64,000 nt of DNA, taken from positions 98,137-162,136 of the forward strand of contig CAVTAJ010000013.1 of the NCBI GenBank assembly GCA_963732675.1, written 5' to 3'. The DNA comes from Nitrospirota bacterium. GTDB lineage: Bacteria > Nitrospirota > UBA9217. This document shows positions 3,484 to 52,170 of this stretch, in pieces; within the stretch, counting starts at the first letter, position 1, and the number at the start of each line of letters is the position of its first letter. A program made the position numbers and the translations under genes. The notes beneath the pieces were generated by a model. It searched no databases. It was given only the letters and a program-made list of their open reading frames with translations, and was not told the DNA's origin.

Positions 3484-3567
3484 GGGGAAATGGGGAAACA
3501 GGGAGAAATGGAGAAAAATCACCATCTGAACACTTCTCCCTTTCGCTGTTTAATTCCCCCTGTCTCC
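3484..3567. repeat. heptad-hairpin element, GGGGAAA/TTTCCCC word type, in the hisB-hisH spacer
   Basis: Left arm GGGGAAATGGGGAAACAGGGAGAAATGGAGAAAAA. Right arm TTCTCCCTTTCGCTGTTTAATTCCCCCTGTCTCC. The two arms are imperfectly complementary. Confidence 0.8.
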
Positions 3568-3584
3568 AAATTTAAGGTTTAGTC

Positions 3585-4224
3585 ATGATCGCGATCATCG
3601 ATTACGGAATGGGAAATCTCAGGAGCGTCCAGAAGGGCTTTGAACACACCGGCCATGCGGCCGTGGTCACCAGCGACGCGAAGACGATCCTGAATGCGGA
3701 CAAGGTCGTGCTGCCCGGCGTGGGCGCGTTCTCCGATTGCATGAAGAACCTTGAGCAGTACGGCCTCATCGATGCCGTGCGCACAAGCATCAGCTCCGGC
3801 AAGCCCTTTCTCGGGATCTGCCTGGGCCTGCAGCTGCTCTTCACGGAAAGCGAAGAGTTCGGGACATCGAAAGGCCTGGACATCATTAAAGGCCGCGTGG
3901 TCCGTTTCAAGGGACCTGTATTCGAAACTCCGAACTCCGAACTCGGCACGTTGAAGGTCCCGCACATGGGCTGGAACTCACTTACCTTCAAGAGGCGGCC
4001 GCCTGCGCTCAGCGGACGTTCCCGAGAACAGCCATGTGTATTTCGTGCACTCGTTCCATGTCGTGCCCGATGACAAGGCCGTGATCGCGACCACCACCCC
4101 GTACGGCATCGAGTTCGTCTCGAGCATCTGGAAGGACAACATCCTCGCGGTCCAGTTCCATCCCGAGAAGAGCCAGGCGCTGGGGTTGTCGATCCTGAAA
4201 AGATTCGGGGAACAGAAAGGATAG
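3585..4224 (+). CDS. hisH: imidazole glycerol phosphate synthase, glutamine amidotransferase subunit; one frame change near 4017
   Basis: MIAIIDYGMGNLRSVQKGFE...VLPGVGAFSDCM...GKPFLGICLGLQLLF...LKVPHMGWNSL continues in the +1 frame as VPENSHVYFVHSFHVVPDDKAVIATTTPYGIEFVSSIWKDNILAVQFHPEKSQ. Confidence 0.9.
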
Positions 4225-4226
4225 AT

Positions 4227-4380
4227 TTCACCACAGAGGGCACAGAGAAGAAGACTATAATTCTGACAGGATCATATGACTCAGCACGAAACAAGAGACG
4301 TTATAGCACTAACCAAGAATGCCTTTCTTCGTGCTTTGTGCTTCTTCTCAATGCATTATCTCTGCGTCCTCTGCGGTAAA
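4227..4380. repeat. heptad-hairpin element, CACAGAG/CTCTGYG word type, in the hisH-hisA spacer
   Basis: Left arm TTCACCACAGAGGGCACAGAGAAGAAG. Right arm GTGCTTTGTGCTTCTTCTC...CTCTGCGTCCTCTGCGGTAAA. Confidence 0.8.
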
Positions 4381-4397
4381 TTTTTTTTGAGGTTTTC

Positions 4398-5306
4398 ATG
4401 CTTATCATTCCCGCCATAGATCTTAAAGAAGGCAAATGCGTCCGCCTTGAACAGGGGCTCATGGACAAGGCCACGGTCTATTCCGACGACCCCGCGACCA
4501 CGGCACGGCACTGGGAATCCCAAGGTGCCGAGCTTCTGCATGTCGTGGACCTGAACGGCGCTTTTGCGGGCGTGCCGAAGAACCTCGACGCCATCAAGGC
4601 GATCCGCGCTGCCATCAAGATCCCGATCGAGGTCGGGGGCGGCATCCGCGACCTGGCCACGATCAGGACCCTCGTCTCGATCGGCATAGACCGCATCATC
4701 CTCGGCACTGCTGCGATCGAAAATCCTTCCTTTGTTCAGGAAGCCTGCAGAGAATTCCCCGGCAGGATCATCGTGGGAATCGACGCAAAGGAAGGTCTTG
4801 TGGCGATCAAGGGCTGGGCAGAGGTCACGAAGGTGCAGGCCGTCGACCTCGCACGACAAATGCAGGAGTATGGCGTCATCGCCGTCATCTATACGGACAT
4901 CAAACGCGACGGCATGCTGTCGGGCCCGAACATCGAGGCAACGCAGGCGCTCGCGAAGGCGCTCCATATCCCGGTCATTGCATCGGGCGGCGTGCATACG
5001 ATGAAGGACATTGAGGACCTGCTTGCAGTGCGCCACTCCGGCGTGAGCGGGGTCATCACCGGAAAAGCGATCTACAGCGGATCGCTGAATTTAAAAGAAG
5101 CCATCACGTTTGTCAAGCTGAATGATAACCAGTGCGCCGAGATAAAATTCATTTTCAGCGCAAAGCCGCTAAGCTCGCAGAGAACGGCTTCAAGACAAAA
5201 GAATGCATTGCTTTTCTTGGCGTCTTTGCGCCTCTGCGAGAGACGGCCTTGCCTTTATTATTTTGGAGTTATCAATGTTAACCAAACGCATCATACCCTG
5301 CCTTGA
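4398..5306 (+). CDS. hisA: ProFAR isomerase. The HisA barrel ends near 5118, but the ORF as sequenced runs on about 60 codons through a repeat element into hisF.
   Basis: [20 protein letters not shown]...[10 protein letters not shown]...IEVGGGIRD...IASGGV...[19 protein letters not shown]. The tail [32 protein letters not shown] is a translation of the repeat at 5158-5248. Confidence 0.9.
5158..5248. repeat. heptad-hairpin element, CGCAAAG/CTTTGCG word type, at the hisA-hisF junction
   Basis: Left arm GCGCAAAGCCGCTAAGCTCGCAGAGAACGG. Right arm TTGGCGTCTTTGCGCCTCTGCGAGAGACGGCC. The left arm is nearly identical to the one at 51816. Confidence 0.8.
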
Positions 5307-6132
5307 CGTGAAGGCCGGGCGGGTAGTAAAAGGCGTAAGCTTCGTGAACCTGCGCGATGCAGGCGACCCCGTCGAGATCGCGAAGATCTACGACGAGCAG
5401 GGCGCGGACGAGCTCACGTTCCTCGACATCACGGCCTCCCATGAGGAGCGCGGCATCATCCTCGATATCGTGCGCCGCACGGCGGAGCAGGTCTTCATGC
5501 CGCTCACCGTGGGCGGGGGCATCAAGGTCCTGGACGATATCCGCAACCTCCTGCTCGCCGGATGCGACAAGGTCTCGATCAACACCACCGCGGTCCACGA
5601 CCCGGAGTTCATCAAGGCCGCCTCCATGCGCTTCGGCAGCCAGTGCATTGTCGTCGCCATCGACGCGAAGCAGGTGGTAGCGCATGACAAGGACTTCAAG
5701 CCCCCGCTCAAATGGGCCGGCGATCCGCAGTATCGAGGTCTGTTCCTCTCCGACTCCGAACTCCACACTCCTCACTCCGAACTCAAATGGGAGGTCTACA
5801 CCCATGGCGGCAGAAAACCCATGGGCATCGATGCCGTGGCGTGGGCAAAGAAGATGGAGGAGTACGGCGCGGGTGAGATCCTGCTCACGAGCATGGACCA
5901 GGACGGCCAGAAGAACGGCTACGACCTGGCGCTCACGCGTGCCGTGGCCGAGGCGGTCACGATACCGGTCATCGCCTCGGGCGGCGTGGGGAACCTTGAA
6001 CACATCTATGATGGATTTACAAAAGGCAAGGCCGATGCCGCTCTTGCTGCCTCGATCTTCCATTTCAGGGAATATACCATCAGGCAGGCAAAGGAATACT
6101 TGAAGGAACGGGGCGTGCCGGTCAGGTTGTAA
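5275..6132 (+). CDS. hisF: imidazole glycerol phosphate synthase, cyclase subunit
   Basis: ATG at 5275 follows [38 protein letters not shown]...LTVGGGI...VVAIDAK...[21 protein letters not shown]...IASGGVG...[10 protein letters not shown]. Confidence 0.95.
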
Positions 6133-6224
6133 GCTGCAGGCGCAGAAATGAATCGTACGCTGCCGCAACGTAAGAACAGGATATGCTGCGGTGCGTCAGT
6201 CAACGAACAGGCGGTATTCTCGTG

Positions 6225-6268
6225 AAAAAAAAGCGGCCCCGACAGATTGTCGGGGCCGCTGCTGTTTT
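6225..6268. terminator. bidirectional intrinsic terminator between hisF (+) and the small secreted-protein gene (-)
   Basis: 12-bp stem GCGGCCCCGACA / TGTCGGGGCCGC with loop GAT. An A8 run lies on one side and TGCTGTTTT on the other. Confidence 0.8.
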
Positions 6269-6286
6269 ACAAACTGGAAAGAACGC

Positions 6287-6550
6287 TTACTTCGCCTTTA
6301 CTTCGATCTCCGCTGCACGTGATTCGTACTTCACGGTCACTTTCGCTCCAACCTTCAGGTCGCCCTTGACCTTCGTGCTGGCGTCCTTGGTCATTTCGAA
6401 TTTCTCGCCGTTCTTGTCCACCACGATGACGTTGTCCTTGACCTCCAGGACCTTGCCGGTGAACTGATAGGTCTTTCCTGCGTACGACACCGATGCAACC
6501 AGGAGCATGACTACCGCACATGCCACAACCAGTACTGATAAACGCTTCAT
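6287..6550 (-). CDS. small secreted protein (87 aa), function unknown
   Basis: ATG at 6550 follows GAGGAGG. Signal peptide MKRLSVLVVACAVVMLLVASVSYA, then a beta-rich KTYQFTGKVLEVKDNVIVVDKNGEKFEMTKDASTKVKGDLKVGAKVTVKYESRAAEIEVKAK. Confidence 0.7.
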   Translation of the reverse strand: MKRLSVLVVACAVVMLLVASVSYAGKTYQFTGKVLEVKDNVIVVDKNGEKFEMTKDASTKVKGDLKVGAKVTVKYESRAAEIEVKAK

Positions 6551-6644
6551 AGAAAACCTCCTCAACGTAAGATATGAATTTTGAACCATTGTAACTATAT
6601 CGAATCCGGACCACACTGTCAAGCGCCCCGGTCTATTCGCAGCG

Positions 6645-8114
6645 TCATCGTCTCTTTCCGCTGCCGAGGATCGAGCCGAGCACCCCGCGGATGATCTGCC
6701 GTCCGATCGAGCTGCCGATGGCATGGGCTGCGCTCTTGGCCATGGCTCCGAAGAGCTTCGCAGACTCCGACTCCGGCTCGGCAGTGCGGCCACGGCGTGC
6801 CGGCGCAGCTGTCTCGGCAGCCTGTGTTTCCGTGGTCCGCTGCTTCAGCTTTTCATAGGCCGATTCGCGGTCCACCGTCTTTTCGTAGTGCCCGAACAGC
6901 ACCGATGCCTTGATGATCCCTGAGCGCTCCTCCGGAGACAGCGGGCTGAGACGGCTCCTTGGCGGACAGACCATCGCACGCTCTACCATGGTCGGGGCCC
7001 CCTTCGCGTCGAGCACCGACACAAGGGCCTCGCCCACGGCGAGTTCAGTGATCGCCTTTGACACATCGAGGCCGGGGGCTGCGCGGAAGGTTTCCGCGGC
7101 TGCCTTCACTGCCTTCTGGTCCTTGGGCGTGAATGCCCTGAGCGCATGCTGGACCCGGTTGCCCAGCTGGCCGAGGACCACCTCCGGCACATCGAGCGGG
7201 TTCTGCGTCACGAAATAGACTCCGACGCCCTTGGAGCGGATAAGCCGGACGACCTGTTCGATCTTGTCCTCGAGCGCCTTGGATGTGTCATTGAACAGCA
7301 GGTGCGCCTCGTCAAAGAAGAACACGAGTTTCGGTTTATCAGGATCGCCCACCTCCGGCAGATTTTCGTAGAGCTCCGCCAGCAGCCAGAGCAGGAATGT
7401 GGCATAGAGCGTCGGCGATTGCATGAGCTTGTCCGCGGCAAGGATGTTGATCACCCCTTTGCCGCTGGCATCGGTCTGCATCAGGTCTTCGAGGTTAAGG
7501 GCGGGCTCGCCGAAGAACGTGTTGCCGCCCTGCTCCTCAATGGCGAGCAATCCGCGCTGTATCGCGCCGATGCTGGCGGTCGAGACGTTGCCGTATTCCG
7601 TCTTGAACTTTTCCGCATTCTCCCCCACGAACTGGATCATGGCCCGGAGGTCCTTGAGGTCCAGCAGCAGGAGGCCGTTGTCGTCGGCGATCTTGAAGGT
7701 CAGCGTGAGGACCCCGCTCTGGATGTCGTTCAGGTTCAGCACGCGCGAGAGCAGCAGCGGGCCCATCTCGGAGATGGTCGCGCGGACCGGATGTCCCTGC
7801 AGGCCGAAAACGTCCCAGAACACGGTCGGGCAGCTGTCAAAGGAAAAATCGCGAATGCCAAGCTGCCTGGCGCGCTCGGCGAACTCGGGCCGGTCGCCGC
7901 CCAGCTTTGCGATGCCCGAGAGATCGCCCTTCACGTCCGCCATGAAGACCGGCACGCCGATCCTGCTGAACTGCTCGGCCATCACCCGGAGCGTAACGGT
8001 CTTGCCCGTGCCCGTGGCGCCGGCGACCAGACCGTGCCGGTTGGCCATCCGCGGCAGGATTCCGACCTCGTCCTTGCCTTTTGCAATAAGCAGAAATTCA
8101 GCTTTTTGTGCCAT
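6645..8114 (-). CDS. DUF853 / HerA-like P-loop ATPase (YjgR family)
   Basis: Intact 489-aa ORF: [49 protein letters not shown]... Walker A GATGTGKT and Walker [10 protein letters not shown]. Confidence 0.85.
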
Positions 8115-8307: not shown

Positions 8308-8348
8308 ACCAAAAGGCGGGATGAGTGTTCATCCCGCCTTTTTTATTG
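8308..8348 (-). terminator. intrinsic terminator downstream of adk
   Basis: Stem GGCGGGATGA / TCATCCCGCC with loop GTGT and T/A runs on both sides. Confidence 0.75.
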
Positions 8349-8386: not shown

Positions 8387-8420
8387 CTCCTGACTCCTGG
8401 ATACTGTCTCCTGACTCCTG
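8387..8420. repeat. direct repeat TCTCCTGACTCCTG x2, just downstream of the adk stop
   Basis: Identical 14-mers at 8387-8400 and 8407-8420, made of CTCCTGA-type heptads. Confidence 0.7.
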
Positions 8421-8425
8421 CTGAA

Positions 8426-11133: not shown

Positions 11134-13626
11134 TCAGGGCGCCATCGGACTTACCCACTGGTCCTGCTCCCGGCAATACACCCCAATGCGCGTTACCCTG
11201 AAGAGCACGGACTCATCACGCCCGATGCCGAACAGGTGCTCGATCACATCCTGCAGGCGCGGCTTGATCTGGTCGTGATCGACCAGCGTGCAGAGAAGAC
11301 TGTCAGGACCCGCGGCGATCGACTCAATACACGGGCGGATGTCCTTCTGCTTCCCTTCTTTTGAAACGATCACCGATGTGCGGGACAAGGAACTCCTGCA
11401 CCCGCTCTTCGATCCTGTCCCGATACGGCGCTGCGACAATGACCTTATACGTGTATCTGCTGATGCTGCCGGACAGGGACGGCGCTTTCTTCGGAACGAC
11501 CTTCGATTTCAAGGATCCTGACGCCCTCAGGCAGGGCGCTGTTCAGGCCCTTGGTGATCTGGAGCAGGTCCGCGAACGGGTCGATCTCCAGGTCCAGATA
11601 TTCCGTCTCGCTCTCCATGCCCACCGGGAGCGCCGGGCCGAACGCGATCTTCAAATGGGGGTTGAAACCCTGGGAAAAGGCGATGGGCACCTGCGCGCGG
11701 ACCACGGCACGATGGAACAGGGTCATGAAATCGAGATGGGAAAGAAAGCGGATGCGTCCGGTCTTGGTGAACTTCATCCTGACGCGGATGGTCATGTCCG
11801 GCAGTCCCGCGGGTTTTTGTCGATCAGCCGGCGCGAATTGTTCCGGAACCGGCTTCGTTGTTGCCAACGCTGCCGGTCTCCCGAGCTCGTTCGTTCCGCC
11901 GTCCGCGCACCCGATGCCGCAATGCTCGCACTCCTCCCGGCAGTTCTCCGTGATCTTCTCCTCCACCGCGCGTTGATACTCGCGCTTCAGGAATTCCCTG
12001 GTCACACCGCTCTGGACAACGCCCCAGGGCAGTTCATCCTCCAACCCGAACGTCCGTGAGGCATAGGTAGAGGCATCGAGTCCGCATTTCTGAAAAGCCT
12101 CGGTCCACTTCTTGAAATCAAAGCACTCGGTCCATCCGTCGAAGCGGCAGCCGAGGCGCACGGCCTCCTCGATGACCCTGCCGAGCCGCCGGTCGCCGCG
12201 CGCGAACGCGCCCTCCAGCAGGCTCGTCTCGGGATCGTGGGCCTTCAGCTGGATGCCGCGCTTCTTCAGGCCCCGGTCGAGATAGGCCTGCTTTCTCCGG
12301 ATCTCCCCGATGGACGCCTGTCCATGCCACTGGAAAGGCGTGTGCGGCTTGGGCACGAAGGTCGAGACGCTGATATTGAGCTGTACAGCGCGCTTGGAGG
12401 CGCGCTTGCCGACGCTGAAGAGTTCGTTCGCGAGCCTGATGATGCCGTCGAGGTCTTCATCGGTCTCGGTCGGGAGTCCGATCATGAAGTAGAGCTTGAT
12501 CGTGTTCCATCCGCTCCTGAAGATGGTCTCCGCTGCGTCCATGAAGGTCCAGGTCGGTCACCGGTTTGTTGATGACCCTGCGCAGGCGCTCGGTGCCTGC
12601 CTCAGGCGCGAGAGTAAAGCCGGTCTTGCGCGTGCCGGCAATGGCCCTGATCATCTCCGGCGTGAGCGTGCCCACGCGGAGCGAAGGGAGCGAGACCGAA
12701 ACGCGGCTGTCCCGGTACTTCTCCATCAACTCGATGATGAGCGGCTGGATCTCCGAGTAGTCGCCGGAACTCAGCGAGGCGAGCGACAGTTCGTCATACC
12801 CGGTGCAGGAGAGCGATTCATCGAGCAGCCCTTTCACCGTTTCCGGGCCCCGCTCCCGGTAGGGCCGGTAGATGATCCCCGCCTGGCAGAACCTGCAGCC
12901 GCGGATGCAGCCGCGCGCGACCTCGACGGTCACCCGGTCGTGGATCGGTTTCATGAGCGGCACGAGGGGTTTGTCCGGATAGGGCGCTGTATCGATGCTT
13001 TTGAGATACCGCCTGCGTACGGTCGCTTTTCCAAGCGAGGGAACGTAAAAGCCTTCCTGTTTCGAGATGGCCTTGAGAAATTCCTGTTTGCCCCGATGTT
13101 CCTGCCGAAGCGCCACGATCTCGTGCACGGCCTCCTCTGCCTCGCCGATGAAAAAAACATCGATAAAATCGGAAAGCGGCTCCGGGTTCACGGCGCAGGG
13201 GCCGCCGGCGATGATGAGCGGGTGTTTGTCGTCGCGGTCCGTGGAGCGTATCGGGATCTTTGCAAGCTCCAGCCCCGTCAGGATGTTGGAGTAGGAGAGC
13301 TCGTACTGGAGGGTGATGCCGATAATGTCGAATTCCGCAAGCGGCAGATTGGACTCCAGGCTGGTGAGCGGCCTTCCTGATGCGCGGAGCCGGTCCTCAT
13401 AGTCTGTCCAGGGAGAGAAGACCCGTTCGCATGCCGTGTCCGGCCTGTTGTTCAGGATGTGATAGAGGATCCGGATGCCGAGGTGCGACATGCCGACCTC
13501 GTAGGTGTCGGGAAAGAAGAGGCAGACCCTGGTCTTGACCCGGGCCAGGTCTTTGTGGACTGCGTTGATCTCGGTGTTGATGTACCGTGCGGGCTTGGTG
13601 ACCAGCGGGAGAAAATCTTCGAGCAT
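11134..13626 (-). CDS. fused B12-binding/radical-SAM protein (TIGR03960-like) plus DUF2344 (TIGR03936-like); at least 3 frame changes (about 12545, 11510 and 11390)
   Basis: ATG at 13626 follows AAGGAG. MLEDFLPLVTKPARYINTEINAVHKDL...VEVARGCIRGCRFCQAGIIYRPYRER... then MDAAETIFRSGWNTIKLYFMIGLPTETDED... then IRVRMKFTKTGRIRFLSHLDFMTLFHRAVVRAQVPIAFSQGFNPHLKIAF... The sequence continues through two more ORF-track fragments to 11134. Confidence 0.8.
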
Positions 13627-13642
13627 GGAACTCCTTGGAAAG

Positions 13643-13742
13643 GCAGGGTCAGGGCATAGGGTCATGGAGCATAGGGTCAGCAGGAAGCATGAGTACATCT
13701 GTTACACTATGACCCTCTGACCCATGCGTTCTTGACCCTGCA
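13643..13742. repeat. heptad-hairpin element, AGGGTCA/TGACCCT word type, in the radical-SAM/rodA spacer
   Basis: Left arm GCAGGGTCAGGGCATAGGGTCATGGAGCATAGGGTCAGCAGG. Right arm ACTATGACCCTCTGACCCATGCGTTCTTGACCCTGC. Confidence 0.8.
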
Positions 13743-19236: not shown

Positions 19237-19316
19237 TATTGCCGGAACTCCTTTCGATAAAAAAAATACGTACTCGGGACCAGAAAAAAATAATGCAGGT
19301 GGAGAGCATTCGCGCA

Positions 19317-19419
19317 ATGGCCAAGAGAGGGCCAGACTGGGCCGCCAGGCAAGGCGTTTGTTCTCAAGAAACCTTTGCGTTCTTTGTGTTTGCCCGCGTT
19401 TTGGCTTGTCCCCGCCTTG
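19317..19419. repeat. heptad-hairpin element carrying the conserved ATGGCCAAGA..GGGCCA core, in the mreB-RDD spacer
   Basis: Left arm ATGGCCAAGAGAGGGCCAGACTGGGCCGCCAGGCAAGGCG. Right arm CCTTTGCGTTCTTTGTGTTTGCCCGCGTTTTGGCTTGTCCCCGCCTTG. The right arm matches the element at 51881-51920. Confidence 0.75.
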
Positions 19420-19476
19420 TTAGACCTGAGCGGTAAGAAGTTAATTCACCGTCACGCTGCTGTCATATATACATAA

Positions 19477-24221: not shown

Positions 24222-26088
24222 ATGCTTCAGATCACGAACATAGAAAAATCCTACGGCAAACAGCTGCTCTTTGACAGCGTCAACCTCACGGTCAATCCCG
24301 GAGAACGCGTGGGGCTCGTGGGCAGGAACGGCCACGGCAAGACCACGCTCTTCCGCCTGATCCTCGGCGAAGAACATGCGGAATCGGGCTTGATCAAGGT
24401 GCCGAACGGGTATACCATCGGCCACCTCTCGCAGCACATCAACTTCACCGAGGACACGGTGATCAAGGAGGCCTGCCTGAGCCTCCCGGAGAACGAGGAC
24501 CATATCGATGAAACGTACAAGGCCGAGGCGATCCTGTTCGGCCTCGGGTTCACGGCCGAGGACATGGACAAGGACCCGGCCTCGCTCTCGGGCGGGTACC
24601 AGGTCAGGCTGAACCTCACGAAGGTCCTGGTGTCCGAGCCCAATCTCCTTCTGCTCGACGAACCCACGAACTATCTCGACATCATCTCGGTCCGCTGGCT
24701 CACCCAGTTCCTGCGCGCCTGGAGGAGCGAACTCATCATCATCACCCACGACCGCGACTTCATGGACAGCGTCACCACCCACACCATGTGCATCCACCGG
24801 AACAAGATCCGCAAGGTCGCCGGGTCCACGGAAAAGCTGTACGCCCAGATCCTGCTGGAAGAGGAAGTCTACGAAAAGACGCGGCAGAACGACGACAAGA
24901 AGCGCAAGGAGGCCGAGGCGTTCATCAATCGCTTCCGCGCCTCGGCCACGAAAGCGAAAGCGGTCCAGTCCCGCATCAAGGCCTTCGAGAAGCGGGAGAA
25001 GTTCGATAAGCTCGAGGAGATCAAGACCCTCGATTTCTCCTTTCGTTCGGCGCCCTTTGCCGCCAAGTGGCTCCTGACCGCGGAAGACCTTTCCTTCTCC
25101 TTCACCCCTGACGGGCCGAAGCTGATCGACGGGATCTCCTTCGGCGTGGCAAAAAAGGACCGCATCGCCGTCATCGGCAAGAACGGCAAGGGAAAGACCA
25201 CGCTCCTGAACCTGCTGGCGAACGAGATGCTCCGCGACCGGCGGCGAGGTGAGGCTCCATCCGAACACGAAGCTCGCCTATTTCGGCCAGACGAACATCA
25301 ACCGGCTGAATCCCGCTAAAACCTGCCTTGACGAGATCATGACCGCCCATCCCGAGCACAGCCACGGCATGGCCCGCGCCATCTGCGGCGTCATGATGTT
25401 CGAGGGCGACAACGCGCTCAAAAAGGTGAGCGTGCTCTCGGGCGGCGAGAAGAGCCGCGTGCTGCTCGGCAAGCTCCTTGTCTCACCGGCCAACCTCCTG
25501 ATGCTCGATGAACCCACGAACCACCTGGACATGGAGTCCATCGACTCGCTCGTCGAGGCCATCGAGGTCTTCGACGGCGCGGTGATCATCGTGACGCACA
25601 GCGAAATGATCCTGAACGCCGTGGCCACGAAGCTGATCGTCTATGACAAGGGAACGGTGAGCGTGTTCGACGGCACGTACCGGGAATTCCTCGAGCGCGT
25701 GGGATGGGACGATGAGGGCGGCGTCAAGGCGCCGAAGCAAAAGAAAAAAGACCAGGACCGGGGCGGCAACCGCAAGGACGCGAAGAAACTGCGCGCCGGG
25801 CTCGTGAACGACAAGTCAAAGGTCCTGAGCACGATGAAGAGCAGGATCGCGGCGCTCGAAGAAGAGATCACGAAACTGGAGTTCGACGTGGAACAGGACA
25901 CGCAGAAGCTGCTTGATGCCTCCCTCAAGGGCGAGGCCCTGTCCATCAAGCGGCTGTCGCAGGCCGTCCGGGACAACAAGGCGCGCATCGATGCGCGCTT
26001 TGCGGAGCTCCAGACCGTCACCACCGAACACGACGAGAAGGCGAAAGAGTTCGACGAGCAGCTGAACGAGCTGGCGCTGATATCATAA
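24222..26088 (+). CDS. ABC-F family ATPase with two ABC domains and no TM domain; one frame change near 25232
   Basis: MLQITNIEKSYGKQLLFDSVNLTVNPGERVGLVGRNGHGKTTL...LSGGYQVRLNL...LLLDEPTNYLD. The second half reads GKNGKGKTTLLNLLA...LSGGEKSRVLL...LMLDEPTNHLD and is followed by a charged coiled-coil tail. Confidence 0.9.
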
Positions 26089-26118
26089 GAAATTTTGCAT
26101 ACCAGGACTAACATCTAT

Positions 26119-26254
26119 CTCGCGCGAAGCCGCAAAGACCGCAAAGAACGTCAAAAACAAAAGGGGTTATTGTTTAAACTCAAGATCTAAAGCCTCTCTT
26201 TGTGCACTTTGCGGCTCAGTGTGGCCCTCTTCTTGGCCATTTGGATTGCGCGAG
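26119..26254. repeat. heptad-hairpin element, CGCAAAG/CTTTGYG word type, carrying the 28-nt core in reverse orientation
   Basis: Left arm CTCGCGCGAAGCCGCAAAGACCGCAAAGAACG. Right arm CTCTTTGTGCACTTTGCGGCTCAGTGTGGCCCTCTTCTTGGCCATTTGGATTGCGCGAG. The termini pair (TCTCGCGCG / TTGCGCGAGA). Confidence 0.85.
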
Positions 26255-26317
26255 AAAAATGATTTTATGCGTGGTTCCGTGCTGTAGTCCTGTGGTTTAG
26301 TGTATGGTGATACGACG

Positions 26318-30509: not shown

Positions 30510-30660
30510 GGAGAACCCCCCGTGAACGTCATTTTTCCCTCGAAGCGATGGAAGACAGGAAGAGACCGCAGTTTTTACCGTTTCAAAACACCACAGGCCT
30601 GTTTCATTTTACGTTAAGCAAAACCGGACCGAACGTCATTATGTGACGGGAATAAAGAAT

Positions 30661-30788
30661 GACAAAGTCGCAAAAAATCTTGTCTCACACAATGGCCAAG
30701 AAGAGGGCCACACTGAGCCACGAAGCCACGGAGAGGGAGCATCTTCATAATTAATGGCTTTTCTTTGTGCCCTTTGTGCCTCCGTGTG
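30661..30788. repeat. heptad-hairpin element carrying the 28-nt core in forward orientation
   Basis: GACAAAGTCGCAAAAAA...ATGGCCAAGAAGAGGGCCACACTGAGCCACGAAGCCACGGAGAGGGAGC ... GGCTTTTCTTTGTGCCCTTTGTGCCTCCGTGTG. Confidence 0.85.
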
Positions 30789-30905
30789 AATAATCGACTT
30801 ATTACGAAATCATCAATAATAAAGATGGATATAAAAAATTCAAAACCTGTTGATCCTGTTCTCCTGAAAAAATAGGTTTTGTTTTTTCTGTTCTCGTATG
30901 AACAA

Positions 30906-35884: not shown

Positions 35885-38572
35885 TCACCGTGTTCTTCGT
35901 CTTTTGATCATTTTCTCGATCTCGACAGCAAAGAACACGACCGATGACAGGAGCAGAACGAACGCGAGTTCCACTGGCGTAAGCGGCTGGGTCTTGAAGA
36001 TGGGATTCAGGAAAGGGACATAGATGGTGGCCAGCTGAAGGACCAGCGTTGTAAAGACACTCAGAATGAGCGGCTTGTTCGTAAAGATCCCCTGGGAAAA
36101 AAGCGACTCTTTCTCGGAGCGGATAGCCATTACGTGGCCCAGCTGCGTGAGGCAGAGCACGGTGAAGACCATGGTCTGCCAGTGGGCGTCGCCGATATGG
36201 ATGGCCCATGCCTGGAGCGAGAGCGTGACCCCTCCCATGAGCAGGCCCACCCAGATAGCGTGGATGCCGAGTCCATGGGCAAAGAGGCTTTCCTGAGGCT
36301 TGCGCGGCGGCCGCTTCATCACGTCCCCTTCCTCCGGCTCCACGGACAGGGCCAGCGCCGGAAGGCCGTCGGTCACGAGGTTGATCCAGAGGATATGGAT
36401 CGGCAGGAGCGGGATCGGGAGGCCCAGAAAGGGCGCCAGGAAGAGGGTCCAGATCTCGCCGGAGTTCGTGGTGAGCAGGTACTTGATGAACTTGCGGATG
36501 TTGTCGTAGATCCTGCGGCCTTCCTTCACGGCCTTTACGATGGTGGCGAAGTTGTCGTCCAGCAGGATCATGGACGACGCCTGCTTGGCCACATCCGTAC
36601 CCGTGATGCCCATGGCCACACCGATGTCGGCGCGCTTGAGCGCCGGCGCGTCGTTCACCCCGTCGCCGGTCATGGCCACGAAGTGGCCCTTGTCCTGGAG
36701 CGCCTGGACGATCTTCAACTTCTGTTCCGGCGCTACCCGCGCGTACACGCGGATGGACTCGACGCGCTGTTCGAACGCCTCGAGCGAGAGGGCTTCGAGC
36801 TCAACACCGGTAATGATCGCCGCTGGGTCATCGTTCTCGAGGATGCCCACCCGTTTCGCGATGGTCCTCGCGGTCAGGGGATGGTCTCCGGTGATCATGA
36901 CCGGGATGATGCCGGCGCTCTTGCAAAGCGAGACGGACTCCGTTGCCTCTTCCCGCGGAGGGTCCATCATGCCCATGAGGCCGAGGAGGACCAGACCGGT
37001 CTCGGCGTTTTCAGAGGACAGGTCCGCCGGGACAGTGTCCCAGACCCGCATCCCGATGGCCAGGACCCGGAGCCCATCCGCGGCCATCTGGTCGCTGATC
37101 GATTGCATCTTCCGGACATCAATATCCTGTATCCCTCGTGATGTCAGGACGCTCGCTGAGCGTTCGAGCACAACCTCCACAGCTCCCTTGGTAAAGGAGA
37201 TATACGATCCGCTTATGACTGACCCCTGGCCCATGCCCCCTGACGCCGGCAGTCGATGAAACGTGGTCATGAGCTTTCGATCGGAATCAAAGGGGAGCTC
37301 CGCTGTGCGGGGATAGACGGCCTCCAGTTCCTGCTTTCTGAATCCATGGTCGCGTGCGGCAACAAAGAGCGCGGCTTCGGTGGGATCTCCGGTCACTTCT
37401 CCCGACGCGTCCTGGCGTGCATCAGTGGAGAGGGCCAGCGCGGTGAAGAACAAGGGTTCGGAGGGTCCAGGGTGCCAGGGCCCGGGTTTTCCTTCGCCTT
37501 CCTGAGCCCTGACCCCCGACCCCTGACCCCGCAATAACCTCCCGTCGCACCACATCTCCTCCACCGTCATTCTGTTCAGGGTGAGCGTTCCGGTCTTGTC
37601 CGTGCAGATGTAGGTGACCGATCCGAGCGTTTCGACAGCCGGAAGTTTGCGCACCAGGGCATTCCGTTTCACCATCTTGCGCGCGCCGAGGGCAAGGGCG
37701 ATGGTGACCACGGCGGGCAGGGCTTCGGGAATGGCGGCAACGGCGAGGCTTACGGCCACGAGGAACATCCTGACAGGCTCCTCTTCCCGCATCAGGCCTG
37801 CGACAAAAACGATGGCGCAGATGGCGAGCACGGCATAGGCGAGTTTTTTACCGAACGCAGCGAGCCGCTTCTGGAGCGGCGTCTTTCCCTCTTCCTCGCC
37901 CTGGATCATGGCCGCGATCCTGCCGAGCTCGGTGTCCATGCCCGTTGCCGTCACCATGCCGATGCCCCGGCCGTAGGTCACGATCGTGCCCTTGTAGAGC
38001 ATGTTCTTCCGGTCGCCGAGGGGAAGCGGCTCCTGCTCGAGCGTCTGCGGGTGTTTTTCCACAGGAAGCGATTCGCCCGTCAACGCGGCCTCTTCGATCC
38101 GGAGCCGGGCTGACTCGATGACCCGCATGTCCGCAGGCACGATCCTGCCGGCTTCAAGGACCACGATATCGCCGGGCACCAGCTCCGATGCCGCGATGGT
38201 CTGATGCCCGTTGTCGCGGAGGACGACGGCAAGAGAGGCCGCCATCTTCTTGAGCGCTTCCATGGCCTTCTCCGCGCGGTACTCCTGCGTGAACCCGAGC
38301 ACGGCGTTCAGGAGCACGATCACGACAATGGCCGCCGTATCAGCCGGCTCGCCGATGATCCCGGAGATCACTGCCGCCGCGATCAGGACCAGGATCATGA
38401 AGTCCTTGAACTGGTCAAGGAACATCATCACGGGTGTCTTCTTCTTTTTTTCGACAAGCTCATTGGGGCCGTGGGTTTCGAGGCGCGCCTGTGCCTCTTC
38501 CGAGGTCAGGCCCTGGAGGGAGGATCTCAGTTCAGCAAGTGTTTCTGCAACACTGCGTTGGTAGGGGTACAC
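35885..38572 (-). CDS. P2-type (Ca2+/Mg2+-like) cation-transporting P-type ATPase
   Basis: Intact 895-aa ORF. Motifs: [24 protein letters not shown] (a PEGL-type motif, not CPC), [19 protein letters not shown]. Confidence 0.9.
37453..37531. repeat. heptad-hairpin element, GGGTC/GACCC word type, embedded in frame in the ATPase gene
   Basis: + strand: AGGGTTCGGAGGGTCCAGGGTGCCAGGGCCCGGG...CTGAGCCCTGACCCCCGACCCCTGACCCCGC. It encodes [26 protein letters not shown] in the ATPase. Confidence 0.7.
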
Positions 38573-45355: not shown

Positions 45356-45904
45356 TAAGAATGAAGAAGTCTCTCGAAATCAAGGAAGCAGGATTGCCGT
45401 CTGGTCCTCTGATAGATACGTTCCCGAAATGCTCATACGGAGAGCGTATGGGCCATAAAGAGGGCCTTTTCGTAAACAAGGAAGTATCCCAACACTTTTA
45501 TTGTCAGAGCGAACATTCCCCTACGGCCTTTCTGAGCACGTCCATTGGGATATTCTCATAGAGAACATTTTTCTGTATCTCGCCGCGGCAACTTGTTTTG
45601 TCGCATGGCCCCTTCTTTATAACGGTCCCTGCACGATAATTGCATTTACTAATGCTTATGACGTAATGTGTTTCGCCGTTACAGACGAAATAGTTGATGC
45701 CTCCCCCTCTTCAGCCCTTTCCGAATCCCGGCGTTGTTTCAATATGAAATACTGACAAGTTCATAGAGATCACACTCCCTTCCCCGAACACCCCTGCCGG
45801 GTAATCCTGGCTGCTTCGCCCTGCTATGAATTCACGGAATAACTTCACGAAGAAGCTTATCATCCGGCGCCTCTATCGTGCAATCAGGATCGCGGAACCA
45901 TGCT

Positions 45905-46655: not shown

Positions 46656-46842
46656 GTCAAGGCCAAGCGTCTGCCGGTTGAGCGCCTTGCGCAGCCGCTT
46701 TACCTCTTCCCGCAGGAAGGCAAGCTCGTTAAAGGTTTTTGGTTTTTTCTGTGGACACAGTCGATCTCGCTGTCTCGTGAATACGGTGAACGTTAGTAAG
46801 TTAACGAATCAAATTCTACTCAATACAGGCAAGAATATTTCG

Positions 46843-46933
46843 TCGCAGAGGGCACAGAGTTCACAGAGAAAGGCTGAAATAATGTTCTAGTTAAAAGATG
46901 CTTCAGTTCATTTCCCTCTGTGTCCTCTGTGTA
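46843..46933. repeat. heptad-hairpin element, CACAGAG/CTCTGTG word type
   Basis: TCGCAGAGGGCACAGAGTTCACAGAGAAAGG ... TCCCTCTGTGTCCTCTGTGT. Confidence 0.85.
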
Positions 46934-47066
46934 CTCATGATGGCAAGGGAAAGGTTATTTGCCAGATACCCGCCAGTTTCTCCGGGGTTTCATTCATGCT
47001 GCGGGGGAAGGTATCTGATAAAAGTATAGCACAGGGTGGTGTTCACGAACGAAGAGCGGAGGGAAG

Positions 47067-47768: not shown

Positions 47769-47781
47769 AAAAAGTACTTTC

Positions 47782-47885
47782 AGGAGAAATGGGGAAGTGG
47801 GAGAAAGGGAAGGTGAAGTACCTTGAGATGTTCAATCATACTAGCTGCTCTCTCCCTTTCGCCTTTCTTCTCTCCCTTTCCCCTT
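47782..47885. repeat. heptad-hairpin element, GGAGAAA/TTTCTCC word type, between the two ACS subunit genes
   Basis: AGGAGAAATGGGGAAGTGGGAGAAAGGGAAGGTGAAG ... CTCTCTCCCTTTCGCCTTTCTTCTCTCCCTTTCCCCTT. Confidence 0.85.
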
Positions 47886-47914
47886 AACAGGGTTCGATTT
47901 TATTCATGGCAGCC

Positions 47915-49282: not shown

Positions 49283-49349
49283 GATTAATAAATAGCATTC
49301 CTATCGCGGCTTGTAAAGGTTATTTAATCCGTATTTAAAGATCCATTTT

Positions 49350-49420
49350 CGTCATGCCGGACTCGATCCGGCATCAGAAGATTTTGAAAAGACTGATTCC
49401 AGCCTTTCGCTGGAATGACG
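49350..49420. repeat. nested double hairpin (CGTCAT ... ATGACG closing two 8-bp hairpins)
   Basis: CGTC ATGCCGGA-CTCGA-TCCGGCAT ... ATTCCAGC-CTTTC-GCTGGAAT GACG. Confidence 0.6.
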
Positions 49421-49742
49421 GACCTTGTGAATTTTCAATTAAATATACAAGAATACATCCGGGTGGTCAAAGGAACCGCTGACCCCGGTACAGCAGACTT
49501 CATTCTATCAAAAGACCTCATTGTAGCCCACGGAAGAATCGGATGTAATGTATGATAAACACTGCGGATGAACATTCAGGCACATCGGATTCGCCCCATC
49601 GCATCACCTCCCCGGCATGGAAGTGAACCGTCAGATATCCGGCACAGCATAATCCAAGTTTCGAGGATGGAAAAGTTTAAACCGCGAATGTCTATGATTA
49701 TCGTCATATCATTTTCACGGATTACCGGGTATTATTGATCAC

Positions 49743-50753
49743 ATGAACGCTGAGAGACCATACCTTCGCATCCTGCGGTATTCGGTACAGGCCGCTTTTT
49801 TTCTGCTTACGCTGTTTGTCGGCTACCGGTTTTATCAGTTCGTCCAGCACTTCGAAGCGGCCGGCCGGCCCTTTGTCCAGAGACCGCCGTCCGTTGACGC
49901 TTTCCTGCCCATCGGCGGGCTCATGGCCTTCAAGTACTTCATCCTGACCGGCATTGTCGAGCCGGTGCATCCCTCCGGCTTCATCATGTTCGTGGCGATC
50001 CTCGGCGTTTCCCTGGTCGTGAAAAAGGGCTTTTGCGGCTGGATCTGCCCTGTCGGCACGCTGTCGCAGTATATCTGGATGGCAGGTGAGAAGGTATTCG
50101 GCAGGAACTTCCGCATCGGCCCCTTTACGGACCTCTCGCTCCGCTCGATCAAGTACCTGCTCCTCGGGCTCTTCGTGTTCCTGATCGGGATCGCCATGCC
50201 GCCGAACATGATGGCCCTGTTCTTTATCGCCGACTATTACAAGATCGTGGACGTGCGGATGATGAAGTTCTTCACCGAGATGACCACGCTCACGATGTGG
50301 GTCCTCATCGCGCTCGGTGTGCTCTCCCTGTTGTACAAGAACTTCTGGTGCCGCTATCTCTGCCCCTACGGCGCGCTCCTCGGTTTGCTCAGCCGCTTCA
50401 GCCCCTTCAAGGTCCGGCGGAACGAAGAGAAGTGCATCCACTGCCACGCCTGTACGCAGCACTGCCCCACGCTGATCGATGTTGAGAAAAAAGAGGTGGT
50501 GAAGTCCGAGGAATGTTTCGGATGCCTGACCTGCGTGAGCCATTGTCCCGCGGAGGGCGCGCTCGAACTCACTGCAAGCGCCGGGAAAAAGGTCGGCGTA
50601 GTAAAACCCTGGCTGTTCCCCATTCTCCTGATCGTGCTTTTTTATCTCGTGATCGGCATCGGTGTTGCCACTGACAAGTGGCATTCGAAGATACCCAACG
50701 AGGATTACCAGGTGCTTATTCCGGAAGTGCAGAAGGAATATATGAAGCGGTGA
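49743..50753 (+). CDS. NapH/MauN-type polytopic membrane protein with 4Fe-4S ferredoxin-type motifs
   Basis: KKGFCGWICPVGTL, NFWCRYLCPYGALL, CIHCHACTQHCP and CFGCLTCVSHCP, with flanking TM helices. Confidence 0.8.
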   Translation: MNAERPYLRILRYSVQAAFFLLTLFVGYRFYQFVQHFEAAGRPFVQRPPSVDAFLPIGGLMAFKYFILTGIVEPVHPSGFIMFVAILGVSLVVKKGFCGWICPVGTLSQYIWMAGEKVFGRNFRIGPFTDLSLRSIKYLLLGLFVFLIGIAMPPNMMALFFIADYYKIVDVRMMKFFTEMTTLTMWVLIALGVLSLLYKNFWCRYLCPYGALLGLLSRFSPFKVRRNEEKCIHCHACTQHCPTLIDVEKKEVVKSEECFGCLTCVSHCPAEGALELTASAGKKVGVVKPWLFPILLIVLFYLVIGIGVATDKWHSKIPNEDYQVLIPEVQKEYMKR

Positions 50754-50785
50754 TTCAAAGCAACATTCAACTACGGACATCATCA

Positions 50786-50890
50786 GGGGAAACGGGGATG
50801 AGAGGAGATAATGGAGAAACAAACGTATATATCAAAGATCAAATGCCTTTGTATTCTTCCTCCTTTCGCTCGCTCACTCTCCTTTCCCCT
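50786..50890. repeat. heptad-hairpin element, GGGGAAA/TTTCCCC word type
   Basis: GGGGAAACGGGGATGAGAGGAGATAATGGAGAAAC ... TTCTTCCTCCTTTCGCTCGCTCACTCTCCTTTCCCCTT. Confidence 0.85.
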
Positions 50891-50945
50891 TAAGGCCTTT
50901 CCCGTTTTTCTTCGTTACCTCACGTCGCTGTAATTCGCATATCGC

Positions 50946-51729
50946 CTACCCCAGGTCCCCCGCCGCGAAGGTGATCTCATCGCGGAACGCCTTGATCAGA
51001 TAGACCACCTTCATGAGCTCCCCATCGTTCATATCCACCAGTGGCCGCGCTCAACCCCGCTCCCGCGAGGTAGGAGAGGTATGCAGAGGCCACGGTGGAT
51101 CTCACGTTCTTCGGCAGGCCCGATGTCACGTTCGAGATCCAGACCACCGTATTGATCGGCGGGTCGACCATTTCATTCAGGACCACGATGCTCTCGTGGG
51201 TGTTGAGCAGATGCTCTTGTCCATTGCCCCTGGCGATGTGCACCACCGACGGATCGGCGAAGATCCGCTCGTTCGGGATGTCCGCCGCATTTGCCTTCTC
51301 GATCAGGTCCTCGATGATCATGAGCTTCGCCTCGAGCGTGGCGGGCACGGTGCCCTTGAGCGCCCTGATGACAAGGTTCGATCTGGTCTCCCGGACCAGG
51401 GTGAGGAGTTCACCCGGGTCCGTTTCGTCCGCTGAAAGATAATTGATGATCGGCGGTTCCGCGCAGAGCGGCACGGTCTTCTTGAGCGCCTTCACATTCC
51501 GCGAGTCAAGGCAGAGGGGCAGGCCTGAACCCTTTTGCACGGCCTCGCACGCCATCGGGAGGCTGACCTCGTCGCCGGCGCCGTCGAGCGACACCTGCAC
51601 GTTGATCATATCCGCACCTTTGGCCGCCAGTTCCTTTGCCATGGCACCGATCGCCTTCGCGTCCTTCTTCTTGAGCGCATCCCTATAAGCTTTGTTCCTT
51701 ACACTGAGATTGTCCGCGATTACGAGCAT
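50946..51729 (-). CDS. pterin-binding (DHPS-like TIM barrel) methyltransferase, MtrH/AcsE-like; one frame change near 51040
   Basis: ATG at 51729 follows AAGGAGG. MLVIADNLSVRNKAYRDALKKKD...GADMINVQV...LCLDS...IINYLS...IFADPSV... In the shifted frame the C-terminus is restored as LVDMNDGELMKVVYLIKAFRDEITFAAGDLG, with the stop at 50946. Confidence 0.7.
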
Positions 51730-51815
51730 GTGTTCCTCCTTGAGCATTATGGTGTCAGTCGCAAATTCTCAGTCAGTTTCAAATCAAATTCTTCTCAAAA
51801 TGGGGAAATTATTTT

Positions 51816-51986
51816 CGCGCAAAGACACTAAGCTCGCAAAGAAAGGCCAAATCATTTGTTTATTAAAACCAAGGCCTAAAGGTTTTCTTTGCGTTCTTTG
51901 CCTGTGCCCGCGCCTTGGCAACAGCAGGGTACGGCTTTGCGAGAGACGCCTTTGAGCTTTTGCCTTTTGGTTCCGGCTTTGCCGCG
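51816..51986. repeat. heptad-hairpin element, CGCAAAG/CTTTGCG word type, with an extended right arm
   Basis: CGCGCAAAGACACTAAGCTCGCAAAGAAAGGCC ... GGTTTTCTTTGCGTTCTTTGCCTGTGCCCGCGCCTTGGC...GGCTTTGCGAGAGACGCCTTTGAGC...GGCTTTGCCGCG. Confidence 0.8.
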
Positions 51987-52030
51987 TTAAGTTTCTTACT
52001 GGTGATGATTTCAAAAAACCCGATTGTACC

Positions 52031-52170
52031 GCAGCGTCACGGAGGGCATGGAGGTGAAAAATAATCAGGCAAATGAGGATTTACGAGAGTCTCACCAAGA
52101 ACTTCTTACTATATAAGCTTCGCAGACTCCCGCCCTAAAACTCCGTGTCACAGTGCCTCCGTGGGTGAAA
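52031..52170. repeat. heptad-hairpin element, CACGGAG/CTCCGTG word type, adjacent to the previous copy
   Basis: GCAGCGTCACGGAGGGCATGGAGGTGAAAA ... CTTCGCAGACTCCCGCCCTAAAACTCCGTGTCACAGTGCCTCCGTGGGTGAAA. Confidence 0.8.

Follow-up and report, generated by a model that had tools for sequence, protein, structure and literature searches.

Putative mobile inverted-repeat elements with arms of short tandem words in the spacers of an uncultured Nitrospirota lineage

Small dispersed repeats (SDRs, 21–27 nt) and heptameric STRR repeats were reportedly described from Nostoc and its relatives by Elhai et al. in 2008 (Genome Res 18:1484). These SDRs and heptamer arrays appear to be the nearest analogue, with the mosaics of repeated extragenic palindromes (REPs) known as BIMEs coming next, of a set of hairpin elements which we have analysed in a stretch of 64,000 nt from a Nitrospirota bacterium (assembly GCA_963732675.1, contig CAVTAJ010000013.1, positions 98,137 to 162,136), hereafter called the window. 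Thirteen of these elements, here numbered E1 to E13 in coordinate order, had been listed in an earlier inspection of the letters of the window (the sequence-only reading). We consider it probable, at roughly 0.6, that they are non-autonomous mobile inverted-repeat elements, akin to miniature inverted-repeat transposable elements (MITEs), which belong to several related families and reside in the intergenic spacers of an uncultured Nitrospirota lineage.

Bacterial MITEs, such as Correia/NEMIS of Neisseria and Nezha of cyanobacteria, resemble these elements in being non-coding, 100–260 nt long and dispersed in many copies, in having terminal inverted repeats that fold into hairpins, in showing target duplications (here in the family that we call type II) and insertion polymorphism between strains (here for E7), and in occupying intergenic or intercistronic positions. 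In contrast to those MITEs, the arms of the window elements are arrays of 7–9-nt tandem words, several families share one architecture, the ends of one family (type I) are non-inverted, whole spacers are exchanged rather than merely interrupted, and no parent insertion sequence or transposase was found for the elements in the sequence examined. The likeness to the SDRs of Nostoc concerns module A, a 23-nt insert in the arms of some elements, and is one of form and setting: module A falls within their size range, forms a small hairpin, is embedded in tandem short repeats or the arms of minitransposons, is nested with other modules, and is present or absent in otherwise orthologous sequence with no duplication. 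Its hosts, however, are Nitrospirota and a metagenome-assembled genome (MAG) of Acidobacteriota instead of cyanobacteria, the host repeats are 9-nt units in inverted arms, and the target is a defined motif, CRCRCAA^AG.

The REP, BIME and REPIN systems that are associated with RAYT proteins share with the window elements repeated extragenic palindromes which often lie within operons, a composition of sites that varies between strains and a modular, mosaic build. Nevertheless, the elements described here are much longer, have arms of tandem words and no conserved 5' tetranucleotide, one of their families has target duplications, and no RAYT gene was found among the window open reading frames (ORFs) scanned. 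A possible parallel is offered by the IS21 family, Tn7, Mu, Tn402 and the eukaryotic Foldback and CACTA elements, which carry several short words in the same orientation at each terminus, and have TG...CA-like termini (here TGA...TCA) and target duplications of 4–8 bp; the words in the window are just 7–9 nt long and directly tandem. Our literature searches gave nothing specific on MITE or REP elements of Nitrospirota.

Architecture and sequence families of the elements

Related contigs and loci that we compared with the window carry the labels L001 to L095. Orthologous loci were retrieved through exact-protein look-ups, which for three window proteins returned no match. The elements and their parts are given below, with folding stability expressed as z against dinucleotide shuffles, the first of two values being that of the plus strand and the second that of the minus strand.

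3483–3568, plus strand: E1, of the GGGGAAA family, a hairpin that takes up the whole hisB-hisH spacer between the stop codon and the Shine-Dalgarno sequence (SD); z −3.3 / −2.0
4226–4381, plus strand: E2, of family III (TTTCACCRCRGAGG ... CCTCYGYGGTAAAT), located between hisH and hisA; z −4.3 / −4.4
5150–5262, plus strand: E3, in the hisA-hisF spacer, a core hairpin of type I bearing a GAGAGACGGCC tail and no nested module; z −1.0 / −2.05
8387–8420, minus strand: a one-armed CTCCTGA array (CAGGAGT family) in the adk-HerA spacer, with a period of 7 and 4.9 copies according to Tandem Repeats Finder (TRF); absent from the earlier list
13641–13741, no strand assigned: E4, a hairpin of the CAGGGTC family filling the rodA-radical SAM spacer; z −3.9 / −3.2
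19300–19425, plus strand: E5, a decayed type I element in the mreB-RDD spacer; z +0.65
26095–26300, minus strand: E6, a type I element between the convergent-side ABC-F and sulfatase genes; z −4.5 / −3.4
26217–26239, minus strand: module A in an arm of E6, an exact copy of the 23-nt hairpin insert TGGCCAAGAAGAGGGCCACACTG
30652–30658, plus strand: left direct repeat of E7, ATAAAGA, 7 bp; the right copy is at 30819–30825
30660–30815, plus strand: E7, a type II MITE-like element with long terminal inverted repeats; z −2.2 / −2.9
30693–30715, plus strand: module A in the 5' arm of E7, an exact copy; intact in L085 and degenerate in L084
37453–37535, minus strand: E8, a hairpin-forming tract of the CAGGGTC/GACCCTG type, in frame within a P-type ATPase ORF; z −3.3 / −2.6
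46807–46935, plus strand: E9, a type I-like leader (46807–46840) followed by a CACAGAG/CTCTGTG hairpin (46841–46935); z −4.6 / −3.5
47781–47885, plus strand: E10, a hairpin of the GGGGAAA family between ATP-grasp and CoA-ligase genes; z −3.4 / −2.1
50784–50892, plus strand: E11, a hairpin of the GGGGAAA family between convergent Fer4 and pterin-binding genes; z −4.05 / −2.9
51770–51991, plus strand: E12, of type I and full length, made up of leader, core hairpin (51814–51955) and trailer (51969–51991); z −1.1 / −1.7
51902–51932, minus strand: module B in the 3' arm of E12, the reverse complement of GTACCCTGCTGTTGCCAAGGCGCGGGCACAG, an insert of roughly 31–34 nt
52036–52170, plus strand: E13, a type II derivative in the form of a large-looped CACGGAG/CTCCGTG hairpin; z −1.3 / −2.1

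The common architecture claimed by the sequence-only reading, in which purine-rich tandem words are followed by a variable centre and by complementary pyrimidine-rich words, is present at all 13 coordinates, with words that differ among elements and two arms that match internally. Folding that is more stable than in shuffled controls, the comparison which that reading had put forward as a test, is seen for 11 of the 13 elements on at least one strand (z −2.05 to −4.6), namely E1, E2, E4 and E6 to E11 and, more weakly, E3 and E13. It is weak in E12 and missing in E5, a decayed copy which had been taken for a stable hairpin at 19317. The elements are dispersed repeats and not low-complexity tracts. 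For the double word CRCDRAGNNCRCRRAG we counted 14 occurrences where 2.2 were expected, a number attained in 0 of 100 shuffles, and its plus-strand matches lie in 5' arms and its minus-strand matches in 3' arms. The words account, moreover, for the recurrent pseudo-peptides among the predicted ORFs, since GGGGAAATGGGGAAACAGGGAGAAATGGAGAAA, for example, translates as GEMGKQGEMEK. Ungapped inverted-repeat scans and exact-word scans overlook most elements, because their arms differ by indels and transitions, while a purine-run scan and a scan with degenerate words gave too much noise for use in detection and RNALfold on the whole window was uninformative, as every 200-nt window folds.

Other parts of the earlier description need to be narrowed, and it had overlooked the conserved termini, the target-site duplications, the nested 23-nt module and the turnover between strains. 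The repeat unit is not a heptad throughout: periods of 7–8 nt are found for the GGGGAAA and CCTGACC types only, and TRF gives the CRCRRAG group a unit of 9 nt, consisting of a 7-nt core plus 2. A purine arm on the 5' side is indeed uniform in all six word families (CRCRRAG, GGGGAAA, CAGGGTC, CAGGAGT, TTGGAAA and TGCAAAA), which amounts to about six observations at the family level, as the 13 copies are not independent; that this polarity is equal on either strand is true, and automatic for any hairpin. That the elements occupy most spacers is too strong a statement. About 10 of 50 intergenic gaps of at least 60 nt, counted from a crude gene model, contain a listed element, as do three of the four his-operon spacers examined. 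The location in a spacer fails for E8, which lies inside the P-type ATPase ORF; among all copies considered, 66 of 70 are intergenic. The elements belong to no Rfam family, with 0 matches at the gathering threshold across the whole window, and a permissive search gave only chance matches resembling miRNAs or lncRNAs, with 15–23 bits against thresholds of 55–117.

The elements, which are non-coding and measure 90–260 nt, form several sequence families with conserved ends, loops and termini, and do not merely have a shape in common. Type I elements (E3, E5, E6, E9 and E12) consist, in this order, of a leader (...AATCAAATTCTACTCAAAACGGCAAGAATATTT), a hairpin whose units are CGCGCAAAG and CGCAAAG and whose loop is conserved in part, and a trailer (GAGACGC...GGTTCCGGCTTGTCCGGGTTAGG), and span 190–262 nt from leader to trailer. 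The leader of E9 agrees with the type I consensus; E6 has its core hairpin at 26119–26255 and a reverse-complement trailer at 26273–26300; and the decayed E5 retains a degenerate module A at 19318–19339 and a remnant of the trailer at 19399–19423. Type II elements, represented in the window by E7 and the derived E13, have terminal inverted repeats of ~55 nt, TGAyrAnnTCGTAAnAAGTC...TCTCACACAAAGCCACGAAG... and its complement, with the left arm also given as ...TCTCACACA, and their ends read TGA...TCA. In family III, to which the outer part of E2 belongs, elements end in TTTCACCRCRGAGG and CCTCYGYGGTAAAT, with palindromic ends ATTTAACCACAGAGG and CCTCTGTGGTTAAAT. The GGGGAAA group (E1, E10 and E11) and the CAGGGTC group (E4 and perhaps E8) recur in other contigs that bear elements, with further relatives of E1 in L053 and L079. 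The TTGGAAA/TTTCCAA and TGCAAAA/TTTTGCA families, which have the same architecture and polarity, were seen in the hisD-hisG spacer of L008 (1326–1420) and L009 (4619–4713), in L046, which additionally has a tandem AACCTGA array, and in L061.

A 28-nt block is perfectly repeated in the window at 30692 (plus strand) and at 26213–26240 (minus strand). When species genomes were scanned with 20 nt of this block, a single contig of a Nitrospirota MAG proved to hold four copies and an Acidobacteriota MAG one, with a further match in a coding region of an Actinomycetota MAG that is apparently due to chance, and a 22-nt scan of metagenomes returned 68 contigs. Copies that bear module A number 75, over the 68 metagenome loci, the MAG loci and the window; none was found in viral contigs.

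E8 stands apart. Its host ORF (35885–38572) reads through the tract, which sits after the DKTGT motif, in a loop of the ATPase whose length varies among homologues, and which has CCCTGGACCCT in common with an element of L058. This recalls the Rickettsia palindromic elements (RPEs), where a repeat-like hairpin tract is likewise in frame in a length-tolerant loop of a conserved gene; in contrast to the RPEs, E8 is a single case without a close E8-less orthologue for comparison, as the nearest homologues of the ATPase are just 59–68% identical and the ATPase of L092 is a paralogue.

Probable insertion, nesting and exchange of spacers

The window, L084 and L085 have E7, which is missing from L086, L087, L088 and L090; the flanks of these four are collinear with those of the window and 93–98% identical to them. 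The left end of E7 reads TGACAAAGTCGCAAAAAATC...TCTCACACA and the right end TGTGTGA...GACTTATTACGAAATCATCA, and the sites without it read TCAAAGA-ATAAAGA, two tandem 7-mers. The ATAAAGA repeat around E7 may be a target duplication or an excision footprint, and the E7-less sites may correspondingly represent the original target or a footprint. For type II as a whole, to which the test for target duplications was applied, flanking direct repeats of at least 4 bp were found at 7 of 15 copies, against 0.5% of mismatched flank pairs (binomial p = 3e-13); several of these are 7–8 bp long, and examples are TCACATT, TCACTCG, TTATAAT and ACTAT.

Elements are also found within one another. The loop of E2 contains a partly deleted type IIb element at about 4262–4350, and the family III counterpart of E2 in L008, L009, L010 and L080 (265 nt) holds this nested element complete in its loop; the same site is occupied by a type I element in L001 and by CACGGAG-type elements in L081 and L082. 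Among the features by which MITEs are recognised, the elements therefore show terminal inverted repeats, target duplication (type II), insertion polymorphism (E7) and small, dispersed, non-coding copies, and a related autonomous element that would recognise the same ends was not found in the sequence examined.

A second layer of inserts lies in the arms themselves. Module A (TGGCCAAGAAGAGGGCCACACTG) is a hairpin with a 5-bp stem and an 8-nt loop (DNA folding energy −4.2 kcal/mol, z −1.9 to −2.2), and in 68 distinct contexts it is located between ...TYTCRCRCRA(A) and AG-N-CRCRAAG, that is, at CRCRCAA^AG, with a flank logo that reads TYTCRCRCRA-T on the left and AG-N-CRCRAAG on the right. It lies within the outermost word of an arm, which may be either arm of the host, and always in one orientation relative to the word. 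At the hisA-hisF hairpin module A is absent in the window (E3) and present in L001; in E6 it is present in the window and in L086 and precisely absent from L084 (97.9–98.8% identical to the window); E12 lacks it in the window and has it in L094 and L095. Module B (about 31–34 nt) is found in the 3' arm of E12 in the window, not in L094 and L095. In L010 it sits in the 5' arm of the element between hisA and hisF, and it is also found in L016, L036, L049 and L074. The two modules are found together, and a further insert lies within module B in L016, L036, L037 and L079. Three orthologous pairs thus differ by the presence of module A and two by that of module B, without duplication, which may reflect insertion, with precise deletion as the alternative. 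Among copies of module A not chosen by a search pattern, a manual count gave three exact copies, four with a single mismatch and one degenerate copy, and the host arms match each other at just about 70–80% of aligned positions. Module A has therefore either spread recently or is strongly constrained, as it is near-invariant while the arms around it diverge. At 45440–45480, outside any recognised host element, TATGGGCCATAAAGAGGGCCTTTTCG resembles the hairpin of module A (GGCCAAGAAGAGGGCC).

The behaviour of module A, inserted at a fixed sequence and in a fixed orientation without duplication, is what might be expected if the elements resembled REPs or REPINs and were moved as hairpins of single-stranded DNA by an HUH enzyme, of the RAYT or the IS200/IS605 type, with precise, scar-free excision and target-specific re-insertion. 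The asymmetric ends of type I, whose leader and trailer are not inverted repeats, and the intergenic, often intercistronic position of the hairpins, which is also that of REPs, agree with this mechanism, and so does the clean replacement of spacers between 98%-identical strains described below. However, HUH single-strand transposition is not known to make flanking duplications and type II copies have duplications of 4–8 bp; the elements, at 90–260 nt, are far longer than REPs of 20–40 nt; and the flank logos contain no conserved GTAG-like 5' tetranucleotide. A RAYT or IS200-like transposase had been proposed as something to look for, and neither RAYT nor TnpA was found in the 30 window ORFs scanned. 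We therefore regard movement of this kind as improbable.

The spacers of close strains have been exchanged in their entirety. Although L080 and L081 have one and the same RNase G protein and an identity of about 98% across 20 kb, they carry unrelated hairpins in the hisB-hisH, hisH-hisA, hisA-hisF and rodA-radical SAM spacers. In the window, L080, L081 and L082 the rodA-radical SAM spacer always extends from the same stop codon to the same SD, AAGGAGTTCC, and always contains a tandem-word hairpin, with words that differ (CAGGGTC, CAGAAGT/ACTCCTG, GGGGCAA and CAGGGTT); these orthologous hairpins have a common start, GCAGGGTCAAG, after which unit number and word diverge. The CAGGAGT family is found as full hairpins in the rodA spacer of L080 and the hisB-hisH spacer of L081, and in an eye comparison these two hairpins, at different loci, have 27 of 28 nt in common, and therefore belong to dispersed families and are not local inventions.

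The other sites that we compared show the same mixture of retention and replacement. E1 is found again in L009, L010 and L011, and unrelated hairpins occupy its site in L008, L080, L081 and L082. The orthologue of E3 has an insert of module A in L001, and in L010 the insert is module B. E5 is intact, with module A, in L064, and 5'-truncated, with the 5' arm lost, in L080 and L081, while E6 has orthologues in L084 and L086. At the site of E11, L092 and L093 have the same element and L094 and L095 a family III CACGGAG element. E12 is absent in L092, and its orthologue in L094 and L095 is without module B; E13 has orthologues in L094 and L095 and a shorter version in L092 which terminates in a type II right end, GTGTGAGACAAGACTTTATAAGACTTTGTCA.

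The rodA-radical SAM hairpins, which begin alike and then diverge in unit number and word, might instead have arisen in place, slippage expanding the words and intramolecular template switching (quasipalindrome correction) making the arms complementary, or the 3' ends of breaks being extended with purine-rich repeats, which would give a purine arm at 5' on both strands. An origin in place would accord with the same polarity in all six word families and with the one-armed and coding-region heptad arrays at 8387, 3926, 5748 and 53252. We find it very hard to reconcile with near-identical arms at unrelated loci in different genomes (27 of 28 nt; 68 loci), which need copying between loci, with loops and termini that are conserved within families, and with target duplications and the clean presence or absence of E7, which indicate insertion, and we give it very little credence.

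The arrays that lie in coding regions or have a single arm are described here in their own right. Within hisH, positions 3926–3944 hold three tandem AACTCCG heptads, 21 nt, in frame, and the HisH proteins of the window and L010 accordingly have ~7 extra residues (TPNSELG) from these heptads relative to the L080 orthologue (KGPEFADLKIPHMGW). In hisF, a CTCCGAA-like heptad array at 5748–5784 (5.4 copies in TRF) lies within a segment of roughly 35 residues, which we take to be absent from textbook HisF; the length of the segment is kept in L001, L080 and L082 and its sequence drifts. A one-sided heptad array with no inverted partner lies at 53252–53291, where 5.7 tandem copies of GAACTAA stand between direct repeats of CCATGCATGAGCCTGG.

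If the elements are mobile and MITE-like, as we think probable, each arm would be a long terminal inverted repeat made of two to four short tandem words, and the words could be reiterated binding sites for a cognate, putative transposase, which would account for the joint change of every word in the two arms of a family. The hairpin would be a by-product of the two ends being inverted copies. Elements would insert into spacers, and at times into each other's loops, and would decay through point mutation and deletion, with loss or replacement being fast relative to coding divergence. A second layer would be formed by module A, inserted at CRCRCAA^AG in the arms in one orientation, and by module B, likewise a small hairpin module.

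Several observations weigh against this interpretation. A spacer is replaced cleanly over its whole length, between stop codon and SD, and nothing of the earlier occupant is left, and simple insertion does not predict such exchange; this scar-free replacement is the feature least well explained by a simple MITE model. The outer ends of type I are not inverted repeats of each other, so that type I is no classical MITE, and the small word-only hairpins E1, E4, E10 and E11 have no recognisable termini. Within type II, 8 of the 15 copies lack a flanking repeat of at least 4 bp, and the ATAAAGA repeats are offset from the assigned ends of E7 by 1 nt (left) and 3 nt (right). The purine-5' polarity of all six word families is left by the MITE model to shared ancestry. 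Finally, no transposase domain was found with Pfam in 30 of the ~64 predicted ORFs of the window, all 30 at 22–54 kb, and no autonomous element was seen, as no pair of type II ends lies 0.4–8 kb apart in the 615 kb of sequence examined, which is a small sample.

The exchange of spacers and the behaviour of the modules could also be accounted for by two linked proposals, which we hold tentatively and, taken together, consider rather unlikely. Modules A and B and their relatives would be self-standing, very small mobile elements that home in one orientation and without duplication to CRCRCAA^AG, perhaps via an RNA or single-strand intermediate, and the word hairpins, each reaching from the stop codon to the ribosome-binding site, would be swapped as entire cassettes by a hairpin-directed mechanism. 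If true, the homing modules would be the first such system outside cyanobacteria and would have a defined target, and cassette exchange would account for the uniform purine-5' polarity as well as for replacement without scars in strains that are 98% identical.

Base pairing within and between families

The sequence-only reading held that base pairing rather than sequence is preserved in the elements. We find this between families only, and not within them. In 17 type II copies, 93.5% of cells are paired in a consensus of 30 pairs, because both arms are conserved. Covariation among these 17 copies was not detected: the RNAalifold covariation term is +0.27, and the score of 0.127 compares with 0.125 in shuffled alignments, of which 201 out of 500 reach it. 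The sole type II pair that varies freely is G-C in 5 copies, G-U in 5, A-C in 4 and A-U in 2, as expected for independent drift. When the 5' arm of each copy was paired with its own 3' arm or with those of other copies, the values were 17.4 and 17.1 for type I and 13.0 and 15.3 for type II, and a signal of arm matching appears only when families are pooled (p = 2e-4 across all copies). Copy-specific covariation was thus seen in neither the arm-swap nor the RNAalifold test.

The matching of the arms is a property of each family, as with the terminal inverted repeats of different families of mobile elements. It is expected if both ends need the same recognition by one protein and is, therefore, not evidence for selection on each copy at the RNA level. 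The mismatches within arms are mainly transitions, with G-T and A-C numbering 79 to 70 and 68 to 83 and hence no strand bias, a balance that led us to reject a strand-specific RNA structure. Orientation is independent of the direction of flanking genes (15 sense, 12 antisense), which argues against a strand-specific RNA role; a tie between orientation and transcription was accordingly not seen.

The elements could nevertheless be functional RNA structures of polycistronic transcripts, such as intercistronic stabilisers, processing sites or attenuators, in which pairing is kept and the repeat nature is secondary. This would suit the hairpins of the his and mre operons, which fill the spacer exactly from stop codon to SD, with a hairpin of one sequence or another in every strain, as well as the greater stability of 11 of 13 elements relative to shuffles. 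The orthologue of E10 in L094 has a bigger loop and one compensatory change, GGGG/CCCC to GGAG/CTCC, to which we attach little weight as evidence for pairing, and weak terminator-like features end E2 and E3. An association with terminators had been proposed for testing earlier, and we find for it only weak 5-pair matches at the 3' edges of these two elements. The clearest terminator-like hairpins lie outside the elements, at 6232–6260 and 8311–8342. These compact, GC-rich structures, which are probably the genuine terminators of the region, are of another kind; we rejected the elements as operon terminators. Further points oppose an RNA role: within-family covariation is lacking, A-C mismatches are as frequent as G-U on any chosen strand, orientation is unrelated to the direction of transcription, copies also lie between convergent genes (E6 and E11), and a tandem-word hairpin is missing from some orthologous spacers (hisA-hisF in L009; L091). 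We judge a primary function in RNA to be improbable, and retain the mobile, MITE-like reading as the one that we favour.

Neighbouring sequence and biological meaning

The window has a G+C content of about 56% and carries housekeeping operons, with genes that include hisC-B-H-A-F, adk, rng, mreBCD-PBP2-rodA, a P-type ATPase and multihaem cytochromes. Its RNase G (rng) is 89–99% identical to proteins of Nitrospirae/Nitrospirota MAGs, and a scan for tRNA and tmRNA genes found none in the whole window. Frameshifted-looking genes are numerous, at 3585–4224 (hisH, near 4030–4073), 11134–13626, 24222–26088, 50977–51747 and 60000–64000, a set that includes hisH, radical SAM, ABC-F, the C-terminus of the pterin-binding gene and multihaem cytochromes. 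Related contigs hold intact orthologues, and we therefore read the frameshifts as probable errors of a long-read metagenome assembly and not as pseudogenes. The cluster of multihaem c-type cytochromes at 58233–64000, with many CxxCH motifs, is heavily frameshifted in the assembly.

Gene content beside the his operon differs among close strains, as follows from the distribution of two genes. A HerA/DUF87-like gene (6645–8114 in the window) is also present in L008, L009, L080 and L081, absent from L001 and found as a fragment in L082, and an additional gene of 331 residues adjoins hisF in L080 and L081. In L009 (12469–18151) a block of hisF, an 87-residue gene and HerA occurs twice in tandem with slight differences, possibly as a strain-collapse artefact of metagenome assembly rather than a true duplication. 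A repeat of another type, with two small hairpins (GTCATGCCGGACTCGATCCGGCATC ... ATTCCAGCCTTTCGCTGGAATGACG), lies at 49340–49425; its relatives interrupt a type I element in L002 and lie in the mreB-mreC and hisC-hisB spacers of L082.

In the operons compared, the elements account for much of the sequence difference between 98%-identical strains. They sit where translation of the next gene starts, and may shape both the expression and the evolution of operons. They explain spurious small ORFs such as LCVLCV... and GEMGKQ..., and are usable as strain markers for a widespread environmental lineage. They also call for caution, as hairpins with family-specific matching arms can mimic RNA covariation.

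If the reading that we favour is true, uncultured Nitrospirota carry layered, tiny mobile DNAs, in which MITE families with ends made of word arrays are themselves hosts to a 23-nt insert with a precise target. Module A would then offer a tractable case for how sequences too small to encode anything can spread, a question which dates from the report of the cyanobacterial SDRs.

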